DNA of 64,000 nt from Octopus vulgaris (GCA_951406725.2 OX597822.1:52328001-52392000); one strand, 5' to 3'. Positions 5,960 to 54,893 are shown, numbered from the stretch's first letter. Numbers and translations are program-made. Notes: a model not told the origin generated them from the letters alone.

Positions 5960-6839
5960 TACGAGCGGTACCCAAAAGAAACCTAAATTTTGAAATGTCC
6001 TTTTATTCTATTAGTTTTACATATTTATACTTTTATCGCCTTCAGAGTATTCTCTCTTTGAAGCAATGCATCGGTCCAGACGCATTCTCCGCAGTTCGAA
6101 GCTGTGCTGGAATTCTTGCGAAGTGACGCCTTTTAACGCCTCCGTCATTTTTTTCTTCACCTCTTCCACATCTGCAAATTCTATAGCACCAGCTTTCATC
6201 ACCAGGGGTGATCTTCGAAAAGGGGTCAGGATCAACTTCCAACTGTTCTTTCAGTTCACGACACGCATTCAGTCGTGACTGCTTTTGATCTTCCGTAAGC
6301 AAACGAGGCATAAATTTTGCTGCGGCGCTTTTCATTCGCAATTCCTCGCTCAAAATTCGTTGGCAGGAGCTCCAGGACACACCAATCATACCAGCAAGTT
6401 TGTCACTTGTTCAGTGACGGTCCTCTATGAATCTTCGTAATGTTTTCATTCGTTCGGGAGGTTGATAGCCGCCCTGGATGATCTTGGTCTTCGAGCGACA
6501 AGTGACCATTCTTAAAGCGTGAAAAACTCTCGTCAACTTGTGTTTCGCTCATGCGTCCTTGTAAGCTGTTTGGAGCATGAAAACTGTTTCGGCCGCTGTT
6601 TTCACCATCAGAAAACAGAATTTCACGGAAGCACTCTGTTTTTTCGTTTCAGCCATCGCAAAAATATGACGAACAGGGGAGAAGCACTGCAAAACAAAGA
6701 TGCACCACGTGGCAGTACGACACAAGCTGATGATACCGGTCGGCAGACTGATGCCTGAGCGTCGCATCAAGTGGTTTCTAGCGGTGGAAGCCCGAACTAC
6801 AGTGGGCTTGTCCCATAGAGAACGTTTCCGGTTACTTTT
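5960..6839 (-). mobile_element. Internally deleted mariner element
   Basis: Left end tacgagcggtacccaaaaagaaacc, partial right TIR ttccggttactttt. Minus-strand remnants VKFCFLMVKTAAETVFMLQTAY, AAKFMPRLLT..ITPGDESWCY, then directly the C-terminal FADVEEVKKK..RLDRCIASKREY. Confidence 0.85.
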
Positions 6840-7996
6840 AATATAATCTTTAGAATTACATATAAAATTATATACCATATACAGAGAGATAATTAAACTT
6901 CTGCAGCTAAGCATCAGTTAATGTTTGGACAAAATGCAAAAATAGTGATAACATCATAGCAGATATTTATCTTTGATGCACATGGAAACCGGACAAACAG
7001 AAAGACGATGGAGAGACATACTAGAGATGGACAAACACAGAGAGAGGTGGGTTGCTGCCAAATTATAATAGATGAGAAGTCACATAACCGAAGCTTAGAA
7101 ATCGATTATTCCATATCCTGTCGTCGGTTTCGTGGAGTGGTCAAGACACTTCAATAGCCTAGTCTCACATAGCACTAATTAGATACCATAATGAGGTAAC
7201 TTACCATTTTAAAGAGCGTCGCCGCCGTGTAAAATTGATACGTCGATCGCTATGCTCTAATATCAACTACGAAGTGACTACGAGTAAGAGAGATACATCT
7301 TCAGTTCAATATTGATCTTTGTACTTCAGAAAACAATTAGATAGAATAAATGGAGAAAAAGAAATGGGGAAAAAAATGTCTTAATCATCATGAAGAAAAG
7401 AAAATAACTTTTCCCTCTTCAAAATTTTTATTTTTATTAAAAATTGTTTTTCATTTATCATTTGTTTCAATTGTTTCCATTTAATTATTCATTTTTAATA
7501 CAGCTGTGCTGACCAAGACATGAGTTGGAAGGTGTTTAAATTTCAATAACTGTCTGTTGATTTCGTTAAACTTCAGTACTCGTTGTTGAATTTATTATTT
7601 ATTTGCCTGTGTGTTTGTTTTTATTGGCTGTTTTTTTTCCGGTTCAGAGAACGAAGATATCTTTGAGAAAGAAAGAGAAAGAGAAGGTAGTCCTCTGAGT
7701 CAAGTTAAATGTAATTTAAAATGGCACATTGTAGACACGTGAAGGACATTACGTAATCATGGCTTTGTTAAATTTCTTCTATTGAATTCCTGTGAGTTCA
7801 GCAAATATGTAGTTCATAATATCAACATTATCTTATGATGCTGAATTAATGTAACATTCGTTCTCTGAATGGCGGAATTAAAACTCGGCTGGTACATATT
7901 TTTCCCAACAAGATAATAATAATAGTTTCCAGTAAACTGACGCGTCATCATATTAATGCATGAGCGTATGCATGTGTATGTGTGTGTGTGTGTTTT

Positions 7997-9770: not shown

Positions 9771-10180
9771 AGCGGGTCGCTGGCAGAAACGTTAGAACGC
9801 CGGGCGAAATGCGTAGCCGTATTTCGTCTGCCGTTACGTTCTGAGTTCAAATTCTGCCGACGTCGACTTTGCCTTTCGTCCTTTCGGGGTCGATTAAATA
9901 AGTACCACTTAAGCACCGAGGTCGATATAATCGACTTAATCGTTTGTCTGTCCTTGTTTGTCCCTTCTGTGTTTAGCCCCTTGTGGGAAGTAAAAAAATA
10001 GAAATAGGTATTTCGTCTGCCGTTACGTTCTGTGTTCAAATTCCGCCGAGGTCGACTTTGCCTTTCATTCTTTCGGGATCGATAAATTAAGTACCAGTTA
10101 CGCACTGGGGTCGATGTAATCGACTTAATATCCTTGTTTGCCCCATCTATGTTTAGCCCCTTGTGGGCAATAAAGAAATA
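9771..10180 (+). mobile_element. tRNA-derived SINE family A, tandem dimer
   Basis: Head ctggcagaaacgttag, B-box-like gagttcaaattc, body gtcgactttgcctttcatcctttcggggtcgat, tail tttagccccttgtggg..aaagaaata. The second unit lacks the head. Confidence 0.85.
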
Positions 10181-10673
10181 AGAATCGATAGCACGTCGGG
10201 CAAAATTCTTAGCGGTATTTCTTCTGGCTTTACTTTCTGAGTTCAAATTCTGCCGAGGCCGACTTTGCTTTTTATCCTTTCGGAGGTCGATAAGATAAGT
10301 ACCAGTTGATATCTCGGATCGATGTAATCGACTTCACCCTCCCACCATATTTCAAGCTTTGTACTTATAGGAGAAATAATATAAGGATAATTCTTTCTAA
10401 TTTTGGCACAAAGCCTATAATTGTGAGGGAATGTAGCGTGTTGATTCCATTGACCCCAGTACATCACTGGCACGTTATTTTAACGAAATCGAAAGCGTGA
10501 AAAGTAACGATGACCTCCGTGGTATTCGAACTCCACTCAGAATATAAAGCGCTGGAAGAAATACTGTTAAACATGTTTCTCGACATGCTGACGATTCTTC
10601 CTGCTTGTTGCCTTAATAATAATAATATTAATAATAATAATAATCCAAGTCTCTTATTTAAAGTTAATTTATT

Positions 10674-22937: not shown

Positions 22938-23351
22938 GCGGCGAGCTGGCAGAAGCGTTAGCACACCGGGTGAACTGCTTAGCGTTATTTCATCTGCCGC
23001 TACGTTCTGAGTTCAAATTCCGCCGAGGTCGTCTTTGCCTTTCATTCTTTCGGGGTCGATAAATTAAGTACCAGTTGCGCACTGGGGTCGATGTAATCGA
23101 CTTAATCCATTAGTCCGTTCTTGTTTGTTCCCTCTGTGTTTAGCCCCTTGTGGGTAGCAAAGAAAAAGGTATTTCGTCTGCCTTTACGTTCTGAGTTCAA
23201 ATTCCGCCGAGGTCGACTTTGCCTTTCATCCTTTCGGGATCGGTAAATTAAGTACTAGTTTCGCGCTGGGGTCGATATAATCGACTTAATCCGTTTGTCT
23301 GTCCTTGTTTGTCCCCTCTGTGTGTAGCCCCTTGTGGGCAGTAAAGAAATA
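22938..23351 (+). mobile_element. SINE family A dimer with 21-bp TSD
   Basis: Full unit plus headless unit, flanked by agaaacattaggagtactaaa at 22917-22937 and 23352-23372. Confidence 0.9.
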
Positions 23352-27077: not shown

Positions 27078-27996
27078 TGTTTCTTTATTAGCCACACAGG
27101 GCTGCACACAGATAGAACAAATTACAAGGTAGAGCTTTTCTTTTGAAGGTTTAAAAAAAAAATAAAAGGAAGGGGGAGTTTCGATCAAAAGGGATCGTAA
27201 AAGGAGAGAAAGAGGACAGAAAAAAGGGGGGTTAAAAAAAGGGGGAGAGGAAAAAAAAAAAATTGATCAATAGGGATCGTTATCACAGAAATGTCAATAT
27301 GAGGTGTAAAGGGGAGGACAGGGGAGGTTTACCCGTGGAAAGAAAAGCCTACGGAAAAGACCACGGTAACCTCGGTCAATGGAGTCACATGTTATATTTC
27401 TTTTTTTTTTTTTTTTTGCAAATAAGCAACTCTCTGTTTTCAATTTCTGGGTTCATAGGATCATGCTCAAGGTGGCTTCGTCATTCATACGTGCCATTCT
27501 TGCTACATTCACCCATCTTTTTTTAAAACATTCGCTAGACAAAACTTGCCTCTCTACTCTCACTTTCCTTTTCAAGTGGTACTTGAAGAAGTTGATGAGA
27601 GATTGACCAGAGAGGAAAGTGTTTGTCTCCAATCCTTTCAGACGCGTCCACCAGATACATTCTTTCGCCATAGCCACAAGGATGATGAAAATAGCTCTTC
27701 CTTCCCGTTTGAAGGAGGGAGGCGTGACAATATTGACGATAGACTCAGCTGATAAACCGACTCGTCCCACACGTGACAGCAGTTGTTCGACACAAGCCCA
27801 CAGGTCGGAAATTGTTGGACACTGCACGAGTGCGTGCAGAACGGTTTCGTCGCTCTGACCGCATCTCGGGCAGGTCGGCCCCGTGTTTCTCGAGCCGTGT
27901 CTGTAGAGCTTATCCCGAACGGGTAGCGCTTCTCGGTAGCACTGCCAGGCCAGGGATCTCTGGAAGTTGTCCATGGGCTCTGGCCCGAAAGTCGTC
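27078..27996 (-). mobile_element. 5'-truncated L1/Tx1-like LINE (ORF2 C-terminal zinc-binding region plus 3' UTR)
   Basis: Open frame LAWQCYREALPVRDKLYRHG..CPRCGQSDETVLHALVQC (zf-RVT-like). AATAAA at the 3' end; (GATA)n on both sides. Confidence 0.85.
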
Positions 27997-28099
<103 letters not shown>

Positions 28100-29026
28100 A
28101 GAGTGTCTGAAGTACACATAATTTTTGCATTTCTCTCAAGTAAGATCGTTGCTCTTACTGTTTTGAATTTCCACTCTCTCCCACCACCGTAAATAAGAAT
28201 GGAGCAAATATAATATTTGATACATTTATAACAAAGCAATAAACACTGGATTTAATGGCTGTTTGCTAAAAATGTGTCTTGACACTGATGCCATTCATAT
28301 TGACAACATAAGTGAAGGAGATATAGCTTCGGCAGAGGTTGAAATGTCCTTGTGTCAGTTATCTGGAAGTTTACTTCCTGCGTTATTTCTCCCACCAGTT
28401 AAAGAAAAAATACAGGATTTCAAAACGGAATAGCACCTGAGAATATGATGGAAACAGTTTCTTATTGCATCAACAACTTCCAACTACTACAAATATCTCC
28501 GAATATCATGTAGATATGCACCTGCGATGCTCCTTACTTTAACACCATCCTTAAAACCTTCGCTCTTTCCCTCAATCTAGGCAATATAAAACTATGTTTA
28601 TACATAAAACTATCAACAGAATGAAGACATAGTCTCATTTGTTCCAAGCATTATGCTGAGAGGCACATCACTAATAGATAGAGGTTACAAATGACAAGCT
28701 CCAACTAATTAATCCTCGGCCGTTTCGTACGCAACTATCACTATAATCTACTGCCTCACACAAACAGACTCAATAGTGGAGAAAAAAAAAAACAATTTGT
28801 TCAGATTTTCATACTGCACGCTTATGCGTTAAGTCCCTGCACAGTAGCCTCATCTGCCATTAGGACGAGGTATGATTAGTCTAGATCAAAGACTATGAGA
28901 ATCGTGTTTAATCATACGATTATCTACATTGTGCCATAGATCGGCTCGATCATGTTGATCTACGGTGAAACAATACATAATAACAAACTTAAATTTAACA
29001 ACGATCACAGTATTAAAATATACTAC

Positions 29027-32169: not shown

Positions 32170-32913
32170 GATTTAAAGGAACAATTGTTCATCAGTCTGA
32201 CAGCGCTGCTGGCCAGAAATAAAAAAGCGATGATCCACTCTGTTGATTTCTCGGTATGATTTCTCGCTCATATCGGTATGATTTCTCGCTCATATCTTTC
32301 CAAGGAACATTAGCTGAAAAACTGAAATGTCTTCAATAGAGATATCGAACCCTGGTTGCGAATCTGATTCGCCGGTGATACCTATTTCTTTATTACCCAC
32401 AAGGGGCTAAACACAGAGGGGACAAACAAGGACAGACATAGGTATAAAGTCGATTACATCGACCCCAGTGCGTAACTGGTACTTAATTTATCGACCCCGA
32501 AAGGATGAAAGGCAAAGTCGACCTCGGCGGAATTTGAACTCACAACGTAACGGCAGACGAAATACCGCTAAGCATTTCACCCGGCGTGCTAACGTTTCTG
32601 CCAGACCAGGTTCAGCGTAACTTCTATATAATATAGCTGATACAAATGTTGACTGGTTGGTTGATATCTCAAGTCCTGCTTCACATCATAAAGAGAGAGG
32701 AGGAGAGAAAGTAAAAGAAAGAGTTAGCATAAGAGGTGCAGAATGAGTGCGAGTTGTGAGCAAAGGAACGCTATGCACACACACTGTGAGAGAGAAAGTG
32801 TTATAGGCAGACGAAGGGGAGAAGGGGGTGAAGCAGAGCAAGTGAAAGGCAAAGTAGTTATGAGAGGAGTTGTAAATGAGAAATTGTATTTTTTTCCTAA
32901 TTTTACTTTGAAG

Positions 32914-33554: not shown

Positions 33555-33606
<52 letters not shown>

Positions 33607-33619
33607 ATTATATAGAAGG

Positions 33620-33670
33620 AGCTTCTACAGGACTAGTACTGTTTCATTCAAGAGAAATCTTCAGGAAGCT
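33620..33670 (-). ncRNA. Type-I hammerhead ribozyme, left arm
   Basis: Exact reverse complement of 39608-39658. Confidence 0.8.
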
Positions 33671-34043
33671 ATTTAACAAGAATTGTATTAGCATTTATAC
33701 ATTTAGGCAGGTTTAAAGGAGTGGTGGTGGTGGACTTTTTGGGGGTAGGCATAGCGCAAAATATCATACTTGGGGGAGTGGTCAAGGAGTCAGTGGTAAG
33801 TTAGATGAAAGAATAGATAAATAAAAAAATAAAAAAATAAAAAATAAAAAAATAAAATAAAATAAAAAAATAAAAAATATAAAAAATATATATAAAAAAA
33901 TATATATATAAAATATATATATAAAAAAATATATATATAAAAAAGGGGGGGATAGAGTTATAGGTAAATAAGGAGATTCTCACTTATACCTATACACACA
34001 TGTATACGTATCTACACACACATACATACATACACATATATAT

Positions 34044-34090
<47 letters not shown>

Positions 34091-34974
34091 CATATACACA
34101 TGTACACACATACATACATATCTACATACACACATACATACACCCGCCCACATATACAAATTTATACACATGCACATGCCTATACCTGTCTACACATACA
34201 CACACGTATATATGCATACACTCACTCCCATGCATGCACGCATACACACATGTATATATATATATATATATACCCACGACCACACATACATATATACACA
34301 TAAAAATATATATTCATACGCACATACACTCATGCACACACAACACACCTAGTTCCCTATATACACATATTTACACCTATATATACATACACCCACATAC
34401 ACCTATGTACACATATATATATATAAACATATACACGCATACATATATATACATGTGTGCACATACATACATACACACATATATACATACACATACACAT
34501 ACACATGTGTACCTATACATACCTACACATACACACATACATACATACAAATATACATATACATATATATATATACAATCCAATACAGGCCCATTCCCTA
34601 ATTTTAATTTTATTATCTTCATTTATTACTTTTGTTATCTTTGATCGCTAGGGCTAAGAATCCTGGCAATGGCTGCATGTCCATTTGTCTGTCTACTAGA
34701 AGGCAAGTACTCATTCCCGCACGCACACTCATTAGCACGTACATTCACCCATTCGTACACTCATACACATACACGTACGCACGCGTTATATTCATACATA
34801 CAAACATCTACATACGTTCACGTATATACACATACGTACTCGTACCTACAGATTCGTGTCTACACTTTAGGAGGCTAGTCTATACATATACACCAATAAA
34901 TATACATATATATATATATATACCCGCATATACATACACACACACACATATATACTCCTACATACAGATACATA

Positions 34975-35009
<35 letters not shown>

Positions 35010-35223
35010 CAATAATAATTCTCTAAAAGGGATATAGACAGTAACTGCTCGATAACATAAGGGACTAAAGCCATCTGAATATGGCTAGGGACAGGGCAGG
35101 GTGGTGGGGGTGTTACTGTTGCATTTAGCCCCAGGCGAACATCGACGTCACCAGAAAGGCTCGACACCGTCACGGTGCCCTAAACCTGCAAAGGGAGGTA
35201 ATTCCCCGATGAAGCGGAAACCA

Positions 35224-35269
35224 CACACGGACCATGGTTTCAAGGTGTATTGCCTATCATCGGCGTGTG
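35224..35269 (-). ncRNA. Hammerhead ribozyme (CCGAUGA core) in a 359-bp unit
   Basis: Reverse complement of 36098-36143. Confidence 0.75.
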
Positions 35270-35582
35270 GTAGGCCTCCGCTTCCTCGACGAATTCTCAC
35301 TATGCAGGATTTCTTATATAGATTTTCAAGCAAAATACATTTGCTGATTTCGAAAATCTGTTCGAAAGCAATAATAATTCTCTAAAAGGGATATAGACAG
35401 TAACTGCTCGATAACATAAGGGACTAAAGCCATCTGAATATGGCTAGGGACAGGGCAGGGTGGTGGGGGTGTTACTGTTGCATTTAGCCCCAGGCGAACA
35501 TCGACGTCACCAGAAAGGCTCGACACCGTCACGGTGCCCTAAACCTGCAAAGGGAGGTAATTCCCCGATGAAGCGGAAACCA

Positions 35583-35628
35583 CACACGGACCATGGTTTC
35601 AAGGTGTATTGCCTATCATCGGCGTGTG
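35583..35628 (-). ncRNA. Hammerhead ribozyme (CCGAUGA core) in a 359-bp unit
   Basis: Reverse complement of 36098-36143, 359 nt from the 35224 copy. Confidence 0.75.
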
Positions 35629-36097
35629 GTAGGCCTCCGCTTCCTCGACGAATTCTCACTATGCAGGATTTCTTATATAGATTTTCAAGCAAAATACATT
35701 TGCTGATTTCGAAAATCTGTTCGAAAGCAATAATAATTCTCTAAAAGGGATATAGACAGTAACTGGTCGATAACATAAGGGACTAAAGCCATCTGAATAT
35801 GGCTAGGGACAGGGCAGGGTGGTGGGGGTGTTACTGTTGCATTTAGCCCCAGGCGAACATCGACGTCACCAGAAAGGCTCGACACCGTCACGGTGCCCTA
35901 AACCTGCAAAGGGAGGTCCCTAGCCATATTCAGATGGCTTTAGTCCCTTATGTTATCGAGCAGTTACTGTCTATATCCCTTTTAGAGAATTATTATTGCT
36001 TTCGAACAGATTTTCGAAATCAGCAAATGTATTTTGCTTGAAAATCTATATAAGAAATCCTGCATAGTGAGAATTCGTCGAGGAAGCGGAGGCCTAC

Positions 36098-36143
36098 CAC
36101 ACGCCGATGATAGGCAATACACCTTGAAACCATGGTCCGTGTG
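36098..36143 (+). ncRNA. Type-I hammerhead ribozyme with variant core
   Basis: cacacg CCGATGA t-agg-caataca-cct-t GAAA ccatgg TC cgtgtg: stem I 6 bp, stem II 3 bp, palindromic stem III ACCATGGT, GUC site after 36137. Confidence 0.75.
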
Positions 36144-36455
36144 TGGTTTCCGCTTCATCGGGGAATTACCTCCTTTTGCAGGTTTAGGGCACCGTGACGG
36201 TGTCGAGCCTTTCTGGTGACGTCGATGTTCGCCTGGGGCTAAATGCAACAGTAACACCCCCACCACCCTGCCCTGTCCCTAGCCATATTCAGATGGCTTA
36301 GTCCCTTATGTTATCGAGCAGTTACTGTCTATATCCCTTTTAGAGAATTATTATTGCTTTCGAACAGATTTTCGAAATCAGCAAATGTATTTTGCTTGAA
36401 AATCTATATAAGAAATCCTGCATAGTGAGAATTCGTCGAGGAAGCGGAGGCCTAC

Positions 36456-36501
36456 CACACGCCGATGATAGGCAATACACCTTGAAACCATGGTCCGTGT
36501 G
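36456..36501 (+). ncRNA. Type-I hammerhead ribozyme with variant core
   Basis: Identical to 36098-36143, 358 nt downstream. Confidence 0.75.
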
Positions 36502-37102
36502 TGGTTTCCGCTTCATCGGGGAATTACCTCCCTTTGCAGGTTTAGGGCACCGTCACGGTGTCGAGCCTTTCTGGTGACGTCGATGTTCGCCTGGGGCTAA
36601 ATGCAGCAGTAACACCCCCACCACCCTGCCCTGTCCCTAGCCATATTCAGATGGCTTTAGTCCCTTATGTTATATATATATATATATACACATATACATA
36701 CAAACACATATACACATATACACATATACACACACACACACATATGTGTGTGTGTGTGTATATGTGTATATGTGTATATGTGTTTGTATATATATGTGTA
36801 TATATGTATATGCATATGTATGTGTGTATGTATGTGTATGTATGTATAAAATATTATATAATTAGGGCTTAGGAAAATAAAATAAATTACTTTGCCACAT
36901 ACTAAACTTTCTAGAAATAGCAGCCAATAAAGTTTTTTAGCCTCTTCCACTACTTAGAGAATTTTTTTCCCTCTAACATTGTTTACTCAAAATAATATTG
37001 GTCCCTTTACATACTGAACACTTGATGAAATTGATTAATAACTAATTAACTTTACCCTCCCTTGTTGATATATATATACATATGTATATGTGTACATGTA
37101 TG

Positions 37103-37133
<31 letters not shown>

Positions 37134-37391
37134 ATGTGTGTATGTATGTATTTGTATATGTGTGTGTGTATATGTATGTGTGCGCATGTGTGTGTATGTA
37201 TGTGTATGTATACTTGTATATGTATATGCATGAATGTATATATATGTGTGTGTATATGTGTATTATGTATGTATTTATATAGATATGTAGTTTATATATA
37301 TATATGTATGTATATGCATCTGTCTGTGTGTGTGTATGTGTATATATGTGTATCATTTTTGCGTATGTATACATGTATATGTGTATATGTA

Positions 37392-37428
<37 letters not shown>

Positions 37429-37705
37429 GTGTATATATATGTATATATATATATGCATACGTATGTGTATGTACATGTATATATGTATGTGTGTATATGT
37501 ATATATGTTTATATATGTGAGTATGTAGTGATATAAGTATATGCATGTGTATGTATGGGTATGTGTATCAGTGTATATGTATATATGTATGTGTGTGTGT
37601 ATGTATATGTATGTATATGTGTATATATGTATGTGTATATGTGTATATATATGTGTATGTATGTGTATGTGTATGTATGTGTATGTATATCTATGTGTGT
37701 ATATA

Positions 37706-37755
<50 letters not shown>

Positions 37756-38247
37756 TGCGTGTGTGTATGTATGCATATATGTATGTATGCATGTATATGT
37801 GTATGTATATATATGTGTGTAAGTGTGTGCATATATGTATTTGTAAGTATGTGTGCGCGTATGAGTATGTATGTATGCTTGCACACGTGTATATATATGT
37901 GTGTGTGTGTATATATATGGATGCGCGTGCGTGTGTGCACGTGTATGGGTACGCATGTATATGTGTATGTGCGTGTATGCGTATACGTGTATGTATGTAT
38001 CTGTGTGCGTAGATTTGTATATGTATGTGTGAGTGTGTATATATATATATATATATATATACATATATATAGATGGGTGTGTGTATGCGTATAAATGCAT
38101 GTAAGTATGGATGTATGGATGTATGTATGTATGTATACGTATGTATGTGTGTATGTGTGTATGTATATATATATGTGTGTATATATGTTTGTGTATGTAT
38201 ATATATGTGTATGTATGTGTGTGTATATGTATGTGTGTATGTGTATG

Positions 38248-38296
<49 letters not shown>

Positions 38297-39181
38297 GTAT
38301 GTATCTGTATGTAGGAGTATATATGTGTGTGTGTGTATGTATTTGCGGGTATATATATATATATATGTATATTTATTGGTGTATATGTATAGACTAGCCT
38401 CCTAAAGTGTAGACACGAATCTGTAGGTACGAGTACGTATGTGTATATACGTGAACGTATGTAGATGTTTGTATGTATGAATATAACGCGTGCGTACGTG
38501 TATGTGTATGAGTGTACGAATGGGTGAATGTACGTGCTAATGAGTGTGCGTGCGGGAATGAGTACTTGCCTTCTAGTAGACAGACAAATGGACATGCAGC
38601 CATTGCCAGGATTCTTAGCCCTAGCGATCAAAGATAACAAAAGTAATAAATGAAGATAATAAAATTAAAATTAGGGAATGGGCCTGTATTGGATTGTATA
38701 TATATATATGTATATGTATATTTGTATGTATGTATGTGTGTATGTGTAGGTATGTATAGGTACACATGTGTATGTGTATGTGTATGTATATATGTGTGTA
38801 TGTATGTATGTGCACACATGTATATATATGTATGCGTGTATATGTTTATATATATATATGTGTACATAGGTGTATGTGGGTGTATGTATATATAGGTGTA
38901 AATATGTGTATATAGGGAACTAGGTGTGTTGTGTGTGCATGAGTGTATGTGCGTATGAATATATATTTTTATGTGTATATATGTATGTGTGGTCGTGGGT
39001 ATATATATATATATATATACATGTGTGTATGCGTGCATGCATGGGAGTGAGTGTATGCATATATACGTGTGTGTATGTGTAGACAGGTATAGGCATGTGC
39101 ATGTGTATAAATTTGTATATGTGGGCGGGTGTATGTATGTGTGTATGTAGATATGTATGTATGTGTGTACATGTGTATATG

Positions 39182-39226
<45 letters not shown>

Positions 39227-39607
39227 ATATATATGTGTATGTATGTATGTGTGTGTAGATACGTATACATGTGTGTATAGGTATAAGTGAGAATCTCCTT
39301 ATTTACCTATAACTCTATCCCCCCTTTTTTTATATATATATTTTTTTATATATATATTTTATATATATATTTTTTTATATATATTTTTTATATTTTTTAT
39401 TTTTTTATTTTTTTATTTTATTTTATTTTTTTATTTTTTATTTTTTTATTTTTTTATTTATCTATTCTTTCATCTAACTTACCACTGACTCCTTGACCAC
39501 TCCCCCAAGTATGATATTTTGCGCTATGCCTACCCCCAAAAAGTCCACCACCACCACTCCTTTAAACCTGCCTAAATGTATAAATGCTAATACAATTCTT
39601 GTTAAAT

Positions 39608-39658
39608 AGCTTCCTGAAGATTTCTCTTGAATGAAACAGTACTAGTCCTGTAGAAGCT
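39608..39658 (+). ncRNA. Type-I hammerhead ribozyme, right arm
   Basis: agcttc CTGAAGA t-ttc-tctt-gaa-t GAAA cag-tactagtc-ctg TA gaagct: canonical core, stem I 6 bp, GUA site, AATAAA ~10 nt downstream. Confidence 0.8.
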
Positions 39659-39741
39659 CCTTCTATATAATAAATTAATTTTACTCTGCTATGTATTGAG
39701 TACCTTACTTACTGTGGTTAACCCCGAATCAACCCGGGACC

Positions 39742-39779
<38 letters not shown>

Positions 39780-39847: not shown

Positions 39848-39910
<63 letters not shown>

Positions 39911-40178
39911 TCGCAAATACTGATAGGGCACAGAAAGTGTGTCTATAGCCAGCTGGAGGAGGTATCTTCCTGGGGCTACAAACTACAGTAGCATCCACCC
40001 TTAGGGGTTAGCCATATTCAAATGGCAAATATACGTCACGATGTGTTGCTGCTACTGTTTATAACTCGCTCTGACATTTATCATTATTTTAATATATAAA
40101 TATATATATATTTATACTGTAAAAATAGATTTAATCCTATATCTTATTTTTCCCTGTCAGTTTGGATTTACTCCCTAA

Positions 40179-41183: not shown

Positions 41184-42143
41184 CTAAATTGAAGAATTTC
41201 AAGAAGAGAAAAAGGAAACAAAATGAATGATAATATCAGATTTTTCCGTTTGTGAATGAAAAAGAAAACATAAATTAAGCAGTAAAAATCAATAAAGCTC
41301 TGGCGGTTAGTGATTATAAATACTATAAAAGTGAAATAAATTAGTGTTCTGAACGAAAGAAGTAAAATGTTTCGCTTAGCGCCCTCCCTTAGTCTTCATG
41401 GTTAATTGATTAATTCCAGATTAGAACTGTATTCTTCAAGATACATTGTTGAGGCTGTTGTTTTTAGTGTATTTCTGAAAACTCTAGTAAATACATAATC
41501 TGTTTAAGCAAAGTCACCTTTTATATCTATAGAAAAATAATTGCCAAGGATAGAATTTTGATCAGGAACTACAGAGTCTCGATTTTTATGAAATTTCCAC
41601 AAGCCTTAAGTATTGTTAAATGTTCTATGTATTAGACGTAACAGCTTCCAAACATCTAATGGCTAAATGAAATGGCAACCTCTTCCTTTAGAAAGCAGTC
41701 AAACATTAAACCTGATGGAGCTTTAAAGTATGAAGATATTATTAGGCACAGCTGTTTAGATGCTGGCAATTTGGCACGGCCGACTGGACATTCAACCTAT
41801 TTTGGCGAAAGTACTTGCTGGAGTTGGAGGCAAACACATACATGCACACACGTATATGTGTGCAGAAATACACATATACAGAGAAAAAAGTGTAAGAGAC
41901 AGAATGGGAGAGGGTAAGAAAAATGAATATTACAATTTCTTAATTGAACACGTTGATATAAATATTTTCTCCCTATTTATACACATAAAGATATATAAGC
42001 TGACTCACATAAATAGAGGGAGAAGTGAGGGAGTTCGAGAGAAACGTTAAAACATCTTATGATAAATAAGTCAGCGTCGAATCAGTGACGCCAAAAAGGC
42101 AACGACAAAATGGCTTTGCTAAAATGTCTCATATTCATACGTA

Positions 42144-42985
42144 TATTAGGTTATCCCATAAATGATGCAGTTGGAGAACTAGCAGAGAAGCTTGGATTTG
42201 GTCATTCAACCATTCATCGACACCTGCGTATCATCAAATTAGTCACCAAATTGGGTCAATGGGTTCCTCAAAAGGTTTTCGAGTCTAATCTTGCGCAGAG
42301 AGTGAATGTGTGCTCTTCTTCGCTGTCACGTCTCACGAATGAACCACTTTGGGACCAAATAGTAACTGGTAACGAAAAATGGATTCTCTATAAAAATGTC
42401 AAGTGCCGAAGACAGCGGGTAAAAAAAGGAGAAACACCAGCACCCCAGGCTAAAGAAGGTCTTCACCCACGTAAGGTGTTGTTATCTGTTTGGTGGGATA
42501 TGAAAGGTTTAGGCCACTTTGAACTTTTAAATCCAAAACAGACGACAACAAAGGTGCAGCTTGAGCGGCTTAAGTCAGCGCTAGGAGAAAAAAACAACCA
42601 TCTTTGGTTTCAAGATGAAAGGTGTTCTTATATCATAATGTTCGGCCACATACAGTAAAACTGACATTCCAAAGGCAGGAGCAGTTTGAATGGGAACAAT
42701 GCTCTACCCACCATATTCCCCGGACATTGCCCCATCTGATTATCTTTTATTCAGCAGTCTTCAAAATCATTTGGTTGGAAAAAATATGAATTCTGTAGAA
42801 AGAGTATTTTTCGTCACGGACAAGTATAATTTGGAAGAAGGGCCTTGCAGATCTGCCAGATTGATGGAAGAGCATTGTAGAAAATGAAGGAGAGTATTTT
42901 TTAGATTAAAAGTGAACTTTGATTATCTCAATTTTGAAAAATAAAAGTATAAAAGAAATCACACTATTTATGGGATGACCCAATA
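42144..42985 (+). mobile_element. Internally deleted mariner element
   Basis: TIRs tattaggttatcccataaat and atttatgggatgacccaata. Motifs LGQWVP, IVTGNEKW, KVLLSVWWD, YPPYSPDIAPSDY, with frameshifts. Confidence 0.92.
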
Positions 42986-52277: not shown

Positions 52278-53384
52278 ACTGCCTACCCTGACTAATTACT
52301 CACGGCACGTGCCTGATGTACATATATCATTTTTTTTTCTTTGTTTCAATCATTAGACTGGTACTTATTTTATTGGTCCATTTTGCCGAAACGCTAGGTT
52401 ACAGGGGCATAAACACACCAACTCCTGTTGAGACTTATGTCCAAGATGCCACGCAGTGGGACTGAACCCCGGAACGTGTGGTTAGAAAACGTGCTTCTTA
52501 CCACAAGGCCAGATATGCGTGGGCGTGCACGCGCGTCTGTGCGTGTATGTATGCATGGCAGTACCCAGCATTTCACATACATACATAAATGCACAAGCAT
52601 ACATACATACATACATACATACATACATACATACATGCATGCATGCATACATACATACATACATACATGCATGCATGCCTGCATATATATATTTCTTTAC
52701 TACCCACAAGGGGCTAAACACAGAGGGGACAAACAAGGACAGACAAAGGGATTAAGTCGACTACCTCGACCCCAGTGCGTAACTGGTACTTAATTTATCG
52801 ACCCCGAAAGGATGAAAGGCAAAGTCGACCTCGGCGGAATTTGAACTCGGAACGTAACGACAGACGAAATACGGCTACGAATTTCGCCCGGCGTGCTAAC
52901 GTTTCTACCAGCTCGCCGCCTATACATTCATATACATACATACATGCGTACAAAAATTCATACAAACGTAAAAGAAAAAATAATATCTATAGCAAACTAA
53001 GTTGTCTTAAACTACTACAACCAGACTATAAATTTACATTATTGAGACATTCTGTTATATAACAAATTATCTTACTTCCAGTCTTAGGAATCTCGTCTTC
53101 GCAAAATCAGAAAGGACATCACCAATTAGGAAATTGCCATTATTACTCACTAATAGAACTTTGAAAATATTCCAGAAGTTTAGACTCTTGTATGTACATC
53201 GCATTCACATATATAAAGAAACGAATACACAAACATACATAAGAGAGGCTTGCATGCAAATGTACACACGCACGCACACAAACATAAATATATACATACA
53301 CATGCACAAACATATATACATACACTTAGATGTTTATACACGCGGAGTAACACTCACGCCGATGAAAGAACGCACATATCTGTG

Positions 53385-54309: not shown

Positions 54310-54893
54310 TTCTTCTCTAGGCAAAAGGCCCGAAATTTTTGGTGAGGGGGCCAGTCGATTAGATCGACCTCAGTGCGCAACTGGTACTTAATTCATCGAC
54401 CTCAACCCCGAAAGGATGAAAGTCAAAGTCAACCTCGGCGGAATTTGAACTCAGAACGTAAAGACAGTCGAAATACCTATTTCTTTATTACCCACAAGGG
54501 GCTAAACATAGAGGGAACAAATAAGGACAGACATAGGTATTAAGTCGATTATATCGACCCCAGTGCGTAACTGGTACTTAATTTATCGATACCGAAAGGA
54601 TGAAAGGCAAAGTCGACTTCGGCGGAATTTGAACTCAGAACGTAGCGGCAGACGAAATGCCTATTTCTTTACTACTCACAAGGGGCTAAACATTGAGGGA
54701 ACAAATAAGGACAGACATAGGTATTAAGTCGATTATATCGACCCCAGTGCGTAACTGGTACTTAATTTATCGATACCGAAAGTATGAAAGGCAAAGTCGA
54801 CCTCGGCGGAATTTGAACTCAGAACGTAGCGGCAGACGAAATACTGCTAAGCATTTCGCCCGGCGCGCTAACGTTTCTGCCAGCTCGCCGCCT
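54310..54893 (-). mobile_element. SINE family A multimer (~182-bp period)
   Basis: One headed unit followed by headless units joined at gaaata-gg(c/t)atttcg. Confidence 0.85.

Follow-up and report, generated by a model that had tools for sequence, protein, structure and literature searches.

How does a tandem array of short non-coding units, each carrying a hammerhead-like motif, come to lie within a (TA)n microsatellite of the Octopus vulgaris genome, and is such an array born at insertion or grown later in place? The question is raised by a 64,000-nt stretch of DNA (GCA_951406725.2 OX597822.1:52328001-52392000; hereafter the window), in which an initial annotation had described a retrozyme-like tandem element. 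We think it likely that this array is a non-autonomous retrozyme of the class without long terminal repeats (non-LTR), mobilised in trans by a Penelope-like element (PLE) that carries an endonuclease: its family appears to behave like a non-LTR retrozyme and to insert like a PLE. What is new here is direct genomic evidence of the retrozyme insertion mechanism.

With the 359-nt unit counted from the base after the predicted ribozyme cut, TRF and BLAST resolve the array into two divergent arms that lie 5'-to-5', both between (TA)n tracts (Table 1). The long-end arm has its outer (3') end at unit nt 221-222, the predicted long-end (L) priming site, and is 5'-truncated at its inner end at nt 31, while the short-end arm is truncated at its inner end at nt 138 and has its outer (3') end at nt 178, the predicted short-end (S) priming site. 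Units measure 359 nt in the minus arm and 358 nt in the plus arm, inside the ~150-450 bp that characterise non-LTR retrozymes, have a GC content of 46.8% and are 98.7-99.8% alike; the near-identical ~359-bp units set in (TA)n on both sides are thus as first annotated. The word tandem holds for the head-to-tail units inside each arm and misses the inverted two-arm layout of the whole, which in our analysis is the most informative feature of the array. The array holds no non-repetitive open reading frame (ORF) of at least 120 aa, and neither it nor the window holds an ORF carrying reverse transcriptase (RT) and GIY-YIG domains. No terminal repeats were found besides the unit arms; a primer-binding site and a polypurine tract were not specifically searched for.

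The same architecture recurs across 88 sampled loci, namely 60 consecutive places on contig C1 from the list of long ends and 28 picked by similarity, the window included. Two arms are present at 71 of them, minus-then-plus in every case, so that the 3' side of the RNA faces outward at both ends. Of the remaining loci, 15 have a single arm and 2 no more than a 20-bp scrap. At 68 of the 71 two-armed loci one end falls within nt 165-180, usually at 178, and its counterpart within nt 213-223, usually at 222, giving the 44-nt tail, and none has two short or two long ends, in a sample where short-short insertions are under-represented since the 60 C1 loci were chosen by the L-end motif. (TA)n stands on both flanks at 63 of the 71. 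Inner breakpoints are scattered over the whole unit and are blunt or overlapping at 52 of the 71, and 85 of the 136 arms at 68 loci are longer than one unit. Target duplications of 12-13 bp occur at seven loci with targets other than pure (TA)n (L036, L037, L092, L093, L094, L121 and L136, those at L093 and L136 being TA-rich and weaker); five more printed matches, short or pure TA, were left uncounted. Where present, these duplications exceed the 4 bp used in defining non-LTR retrozymes.

This footprint, made up of a two-site tail, an inverted arm, a duplication and a (TA)n target, is the signature of PLE two-site priming. PLEs cut and extend both strands of AT-rich DNA and use two internal initiation sites, which leaves a 30-40-nt tail (PMC11167929), and PMC8557442 describes a truncated copy lying alongside in inverted orientation, with a tail at one of the ends. 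Insertion of the PLE type is thus very probable. Li et al. (10.64898/2026.07.22.740005) propose local tandem amplification for retrozyme arrays, and the variants shared by blocks of units at L031 could reflect later local turnover; from a satellite or minisatellite grown by unequal crossover or from re-inserted circular DNA, with a vestigial hammerhead, or from a fold-back artefact of the assembly, one would nevertheless not expect fixed paired ends, locus-specific inversion points and 12-13-bp duplications, nor copies 98-100% identical that are spread over at least 16 contigs. The unit is moreover assembled in four sequencing runs of four studies. This explanation is largely refuted already and highly improbable.

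The dispersal was established in a genome assembled as 227 contigs that total 2.8 Gb. Candidate places for the unit number 705, and scoring 40 of them gave 280 matches; the 150 matches listed show 98-100% identity and lie on at least 16 contigs. The exact core with C at position 4 (C4) has 806 genome matches against 0 for the reversed control, and A, G or T at that position in the exact C4 context was found 0 times genome-wide. The long-end pattern has 1141 genome matches; among the first 100 on the list we counted 72 genuine ends, and by extrapolation the family comprises roughly 800 insertions. It is both dispersed and young.

This genome also has active PLEs with the same insertion rule. 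A search for GIY-YIG domains (6136 candidates, 150 scored, hence far from complete as a search for the partner) revealed a family, PLE-1, with intact 781-aa frames holding RT and GIY-YIG domains, pseudo-long terminal repeats (pLTRs) of ~500 bp and a unit of ~4.7 kb, most copies of which are 97-99.8% alike. It has (TA)n targets, a 38-nt tail and a predicted minimal hammerhead with a UUGAUAA, U3-A8 core; its copies (L173-L187, e.g. L176:1044-6293) also show a 479-aa upstream frame that matches no Pfam family and overlaps the 781-aa frame. A second family, F, surrounds the array and is apparently an autonomous PLE, judged by a pLTR-ORF-pLTR layout and 22% identity over 232 aa to the PLE-1 RT (E 4e-06); Pfam gave no RT or GIY-YIG match for its two frames and the PDB no match for the longer one. 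Its copy in L249 has the pLTR-ORF-pLTR layout with one frameshift, its 3' untranslated region of ~3 kb is largely microsatellite-like, and of its 947 candidates the 40 scored are 100% identical over 261 bp; the family is very young. The plus arm of F in the window holds, at 39608-39658, a hammerhead-like motif with a canonical CUGAAGA core; in this family the motif precedes the short end by just 22 nt.

The retrozyme array sits in the central (TA)n of this truncated F insertion, and the simplest reading is that it entered afterwards. The flanking 1.4-kb inverted repeat was considered as an assembly error or as a by-product of the retrozyme; both were ruled out, the repeat being the F insertion itself. 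Two-armed insertions follow the rule of one short and one long end at five of five F loci and in the window, and at two of two PLE-1 loci. A further PLE at L188 was rejected as the partner, the adjacent tail match being a separate old retrozyme copy. On the side of the unit, the hairpin directly upstream of the S site, the conserved hairpin preceding the long site and a conserved stem between the tail and nt ~110-117, with compensatory changes in 3 of 15 units, may form a protein-binding module for the PLE protein; the S-site hairpin was not found in the PLE termini examined.

The second half of the argument concerns the ribozyme. Four complete hammerhead-like motifs, CACACG-CCGATGA-TAGG CAATACA CCTT-GAAA-CCATGG-TC-CGTGTG, were recovered from the sequence by scripts, and all four have the CCGAUGA core, the U-U pair and the palindromic stem III at the positions first annotated; the distal stem I pairing 36083-36090/36149-36156 is likewise present, and the predicted cuts after 36137 and 36495 fall where first annotated. 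Tested against the consensus C3 U4 G5 A6 N7 G8 A9 / G12 A13 A14 A15.1 / U16.1 H17, only U4 deviates. U4C is known as an active natural variant, so that the deviation makes the motif less canonical but no less a hammerhead. Rfam scans of the array returned no hammerhead family at E values up to 10, which bears out the expectation that this core evades standard searches and implies that standard models overlook the CCGAUGA motif. All families retain an A-rich loop II together with an internal loop situated 6 bp away from the core, an arrangement that may resemble the tertiary contact of the schistosome hammerhead.

Table 1. Positions in the window of the retrozyme array, its predicted hammerheads and the surrounding PLE insertion
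Feature	Coordinates	Strand	Basis
PLE family F short-end arm, 5'-truncated, 3' untranslated region/pLTR only	33604-35008	-	repeat comparison
Left (TA)n target tract	34977-35008	none	sequence
Long-end arm, 2.5 head-to-tail units	35008-35917	-	TRF, BLAST
44-nt tail (unit nt 179-222), at one outer end only, PLE-like	35008-35051	-	tail concept from PMC11167929 and PMC8557442
Predicted extended type I hammerhead, C17 at 35230	35211-35284	-	sequence
Predicted extended type I hammerhead, C17 at 35589	35570-35643	-	sequence
Inversion junction, 2-bp GT microhomology	35916-35917	none	arm overlap
Short-end arm, 2.1 units	35916-36673	+	TRF, BLAST
Predicted extended type I hammerhead, core CCGAUGA 36104-36110, predicted cut after 36137	36083-36156	+	sequence, covariation
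Hairpin directly upstream of the S site	36281-36298	+	kept in young, older and ~58%-identical families
Predicted extended type I hammerhead, predicted cut after 36495	36441-36514	+	sequence
Right (TA)n target tract	36671-36688	none	sequence
PLE family F long-end arm, ~70-nt tail	36743-39744	+	repeat comparison

Stems I-III were tested in 48 distinct sequences, which are kin to one another rather than independent events and include degenerate copies. The hammerhead pairs are paired in 89.6% of cells, compared with 83.5 on shuffling (0 of 500 shuffles as high) and 21-59% when slid, and 7 of the 15 pairs show two-sided changes. Position 3-8 is paired in 46 of the 48 (CG 29, UG 10, UA 7), and G12-A13-A14 is invariant. 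Stem III remains self-complementary across relatives (CCAUGG, CCUAGG, CCUGGG, CUCGAG), its centre being CG in 17, AU in 15, UA in 9 and UG in 5. Position 10.1-11.1 is unpaired in 42; the U10.1-U11.1 register proposed for the window copies is supported by relatives that have G-U or G-C there. Older subfamilies have the cores UUGAUGA, UUGACGA and UUGAUAA. A still older family, 58% identical to the unit and with 2576 candidate places, combines a canonical CUGAUGA core with the same stem I, a GGG/CCC stem II and a different palindrome, CUCGAG; its L-end motif is also the same and lies ~220 nt downstream of the cut position. The covariation among relatives and the canonical core of the old family imply that the motif is a real hammerhead homologue, in all probability one kept by selection. 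Together with the dispersal at 98-100% identity, they uphold the proposal of the initial annotation that the family is young and retrozyme-like and that its extended type I hammerhead is a variant one.

How the core came to its present form can be read from a tree of 67 units (midpoint root, on the long branch to the old family). It is a ladder that leads from UUGACGA and UUGAUAA through UUGAUGA to CCGACGA and the youngest, CCGAUGA. Position 4 is C in all four window copies and in 1229 genomic copies; positions 3-4, in the context of the unit genome-wide, are CC in 1229 cases and UU in 706, with only four CU and two UC. The near-absence of the intermediates and the order of the tree imply that C4 and C3 changed together, apparently as a double change of UU to CC from an ancestor with a U3-G8 wobble, which would have restored the Watson-Crick pair 3-8 at the cost of U4. 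The annotated change of U4 to C is thus right against the consensus and incomplete as history.

Some neighbouring observations concern hammerhead cores elsewhere. A search with the canonical-core pattern gave as its sole match an unrelated pair at L051:1500-1980, two copies 434 bp apart with a CUGAUGA core and a CCAUGG palindrome. Another repeat, on the minus strand of L159 and in the flank of L214, carries a distinct, minimal hammerhead-like motif that likewise has a C4 core (CCGACGA), so that C4 cores may be common in this genome. The minus strand of L161 carries, near one end of the locus and outside PLE-1, a hammerhead-like motif with a UUGAUAA core and a CAUG palindrome. At L031:1345-1610 (minus) lies a lone diverged relative that shares the ribozyme stems and the pre-tail hairpin and differs in the middle; it has no close second copy among the places scored. 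A fragment of the old canonical-core family, spotted by eye, lies in the window at 39909-40080, 170 bp past the F element and after (TA)n.

Which RNA was copied can be asked of the units themselves. Some substitutions occur at a single one of the 88 loci sampled out of roughly 800; at 10 loci every covering unit carries such a private substitution, at nine of them in both arms (13/13 at L039, 11/11 at L048, then 5/5, 4/4 and five times 2/2), and 318 of 320 unit junctions at the cut site are exact. Both results are compatible with a single monomeric circle copied over and over from the two primers, and such a circle is, in our judgement, reasonably likely to have been the usual template. Linear monomers released by the ribozyme, from which a telomerase-like PLE RT would make multimers by template jumps from 5' to 3' end, would explain the fixed private variants and the occasional haplotype switches equally well, but scars and stops would then presumably be expected at the junction, whereas nearly all the cut-site junctions are exact and arms rarely stop there; we regard such jumps as quite improbable.

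Several points weigh against the reading of the array as a PLE-mobilised retrozyme, besides the restricted meaning of private and the sampling of short-short insertions. Its retrozyme steps, cleavage and the circle, are deduced from sequence. At L036 the same haplotype switch, a mosaic, is mirrored in both arms, at L043, L045 and L038 marks recur every two or five units, and at L031 a block of variants switches, which implies that multimer templates or template switches also occur. When the inner 5' ends of 157 arms are mapped exactly, they do not cluster at the predicted cut site (3-5 lie within 2 nt of it, against ~2 expected), so that cleaved linear monomers are not the usual template. The PLE ribozyme is dispensable for insertion in vitro (PMC11167929), and in 10.64898/2026.07.22.740005 only one of nine predicted retrozyme dimers was cleaved. 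The unit shows no significant match and no shared pLTR sequence when compared with 50 GIY-YIG loci and with family F, and its 44-nt tail differs in length from those of PLE-1 (38 nt, the closer) and F (~70 nt); neither family shares sequence with the unit. In the energy model, finally, the active monomer fold costs +8.5 kcal/mol relative to the ensemble. Canonical-core relatives pay 4.2-18.2 kcal/mol in the same model, and energy models do not separate variant from canonical cores. Against shuffles, the ribozyme domain (z -4.35) and the monomer (z -5.76) fold better than expected by chance, although the minimum-energy fold differs from the active hammerhead fold. A dimer-ready fold costs +6.8 kcal/mol per unit, which the palindrome duplex at -11.2 kcal/mol outweighs, so that a dimer would be favoured.

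Some of these points would fit a PLE-dependent non-autonomous element with a ribozyme dead or nearly so, whose uncleaved linear multimers, transcribed from existing arrays, are primed at the same two sites with no circle involved: the A/B lineage, with its CC and UU cores, almost never has a canonical one, 5' ends do not pile up at the cut site, the mirrored mosaic and the periodic marks suit multimer templates, and PLE insertion in vitro proceeded from unprocessed RNA (PMC11167929). On the other hand, every subfamily down to the youngest has either retained the catalytic residues, the 3-8 pair and the palindrome or compensated for changes in them, and new variants fixed over up to 13 units and in both arms require a monomer bottleneck. 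U4C, U3-A8 and U10.1-U11.1 are each natural hammerhead variants (PMC3088659 and PMC4209133); in the former, a U4C viroid has lower activity and is still infectious, and U10.1-U11.1 is tolerated, whereas in the octopus family U4C is fixed in more than 1200 copies after a U3-G8/U3-A8 phase. A dead ribozyme thus seems unlikely, and that the C4 form still cleaves in vivo moderately likely.

For the PLE-mobilised retrozyme we therefore propose the following cycle. Arrays would be transcribed in the ribozyme sense, and a slow type I hammerhead, probably assisted by dimerisation or by protein, would yield 359-nt monomers from some transcripts; monomers would be ligated to circles, while some multimers survive. 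The PLE protein would nick both strands of (TA)n or AT-rich DNA ~12 bp apart, as shown by the target duplications, and reverse transcription would be primed from both DNA ends at fixed RNA sites at nt ~178 and ~222 after the cut, a step whose end pattern is observed and for which PMC11167929 suggests the enzymology. Each cDNA would run a variable distance, seen in the arm lengths, often several times round the unit in what may be rolling-circle copying, and the joining of two cDNAs tail to tail by microhomology would produce the two divergent arms that are seen. We tentatively go one step further and suggest, at somewhat less than an even chance, that each insertion is a double rolling-circle event on one 359-nt circle with an attenuated ribozyme kept throughout. 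A dimeric PLE protein would then prime from both nicked strands at sites 44 nt apart, with two polymerases circling the same RNA, and first the UUGA and then the CCGA cores would have been tuned to leave circles, and some of the multimers, uncut for long enough that copying can take place.

The four sequencing runs in which the unit was assembled are of assumed type, and their contigs do not allow ends, strand or level to be read. In run X1 a 402-nt contig in the ribozyme sense starts with a 26-nt loose end, presumably a template-switch adapter, and runs from 36077 through the cut site and the unit junction; it is a weak hint of sense transcription and not of cleavage. Runs X5 and X14 gave closed 390-nt contigs, which a circle and a tandem fit equally, and in X14, which is labelled as another organism, C4 is kept. 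At 36206-36285, short contigs of X5 and X13, some of them much deeper in X13, match the middle of the unit but differ from it in some bases and have dissimilar flanks; they possibly come from a further, more abundant relative family.

Among known systems the metazoan non-LTR retrozymes (Cervera and de la Pena 2020, PMC7229834; 350-390-bp repeats in mussel) come closest in their units, and they share with the octopus family non-coding tandem units with a GC content below 50%, one extended type I hammerhead per unit, a weak palindromic stem III, a highly self-paired predicted circle and PLEs in the genome. They differ in having CU where the octopus core has CC or UU at positions 3-4; octopus insertions consist of two divergent arms whose ends are fixed, one of them with the 44-nt tail, and circles have been demonstrated there, while the octopus circle is predicted from the genome sequence. 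The words inverted, microsatellite, rolling, octopus and cephalopod are absent from the main text of PMC7229834. Poseidon PAc of Anolis (PMC11167929) and the PLEs of PMC8557442 share (TA)n or AT-rich cleavage, two-strand extension, two initiation sites, an adjacent inverted 5'-truncated copy and a hammerhead upstream of the initiation sites; in contrast to such endonuclease-positive PLEs, the octopus unit has no ORF, its arms are often 359-nt multimers and its hammerhead is extended rather than minimal. The rule of one short and one long end is near-absolute in the octopus family (68/71).

Li, Clavereau and Pollet (10.64898/2026.07.22.740005) describe a comparable PLE dependence with tandem units and a hammerhead. 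Their case is built on co-occurrence in vertebrates and pLTR similarity and favours local tandem growth, whereas the octopus family shows an insertion footprint and no pLTR similarity; a search of that text for the terms tail and target site found neither. Non-autonomous PLEs of Chlamys, e.g. MRC1, share multicopy head-to-tail insertions, but the Chlamys and Naiad elements lack canonical hammerheads and have a 3' end like that of their autonomous partner (PMC8557442), and neither is true of the octopus family. For metazoan retrozymes, PMC7761336 gives no motif that identifies the mobilising transposon and only proposes that cDNA longer than a unit arises from the circle. Searches of mostly open literature, supplements lying outside their scope, turned up no description of a retrozyme in cephalopods and none of a tail-and-inversion footprint in arrays of retrozymes.

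Here a retrozyme family directly carries the enzymatic footprint of a PLE, with tail, inverted arm, 12-13-bp duplication and (TA)n, and its arrays of up to ~20 units would be born at insertion, as opposed to the local amplification view. One and the same genome offers intact candidate enzymes, a defined substrate of 359 nt and, on it, two positions at which priming is predicted, which makes rolling-circle retrotransposition testable in vitro. The family also supplies a dated natural series of hammerhead cores and indicates that canonical-core searches undercount retrozymes. A 2017 study by Lunse et al. on PLE hammerhead variants may already list such cores.

The remaining observations concern the surroundings of the array. 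A fold-back palindrome of ~55 bp at 36690-36800, at the 5' end of the plus arm of F and next to the array, is the origin of microRNA matches in Rfam; these and a match to uc_338 were ruled out as fold-back and microsatellite noise. A dispersed and sometimes tandem 184-bp repeat, which we take to be an octopus-type short interspersed nuclear element, occurs at 22986-23349, 32383-32604, 52690-52911, 54353-54844 and 10007-10186. A frame at 27453-28154 (minus) presumably resembles the C-terminal zinc-finger region of the reverse transcriptase of a long interspersed nuclear element, and broken pieces at 6042-6917 (minus) and 42089-42658 (plus) are, we assume, mariner-like transposase. Finally, the 348-bp inverted pair 46951-47293/51902-52247 is 95% alike, with its members 4.6 kb apart.
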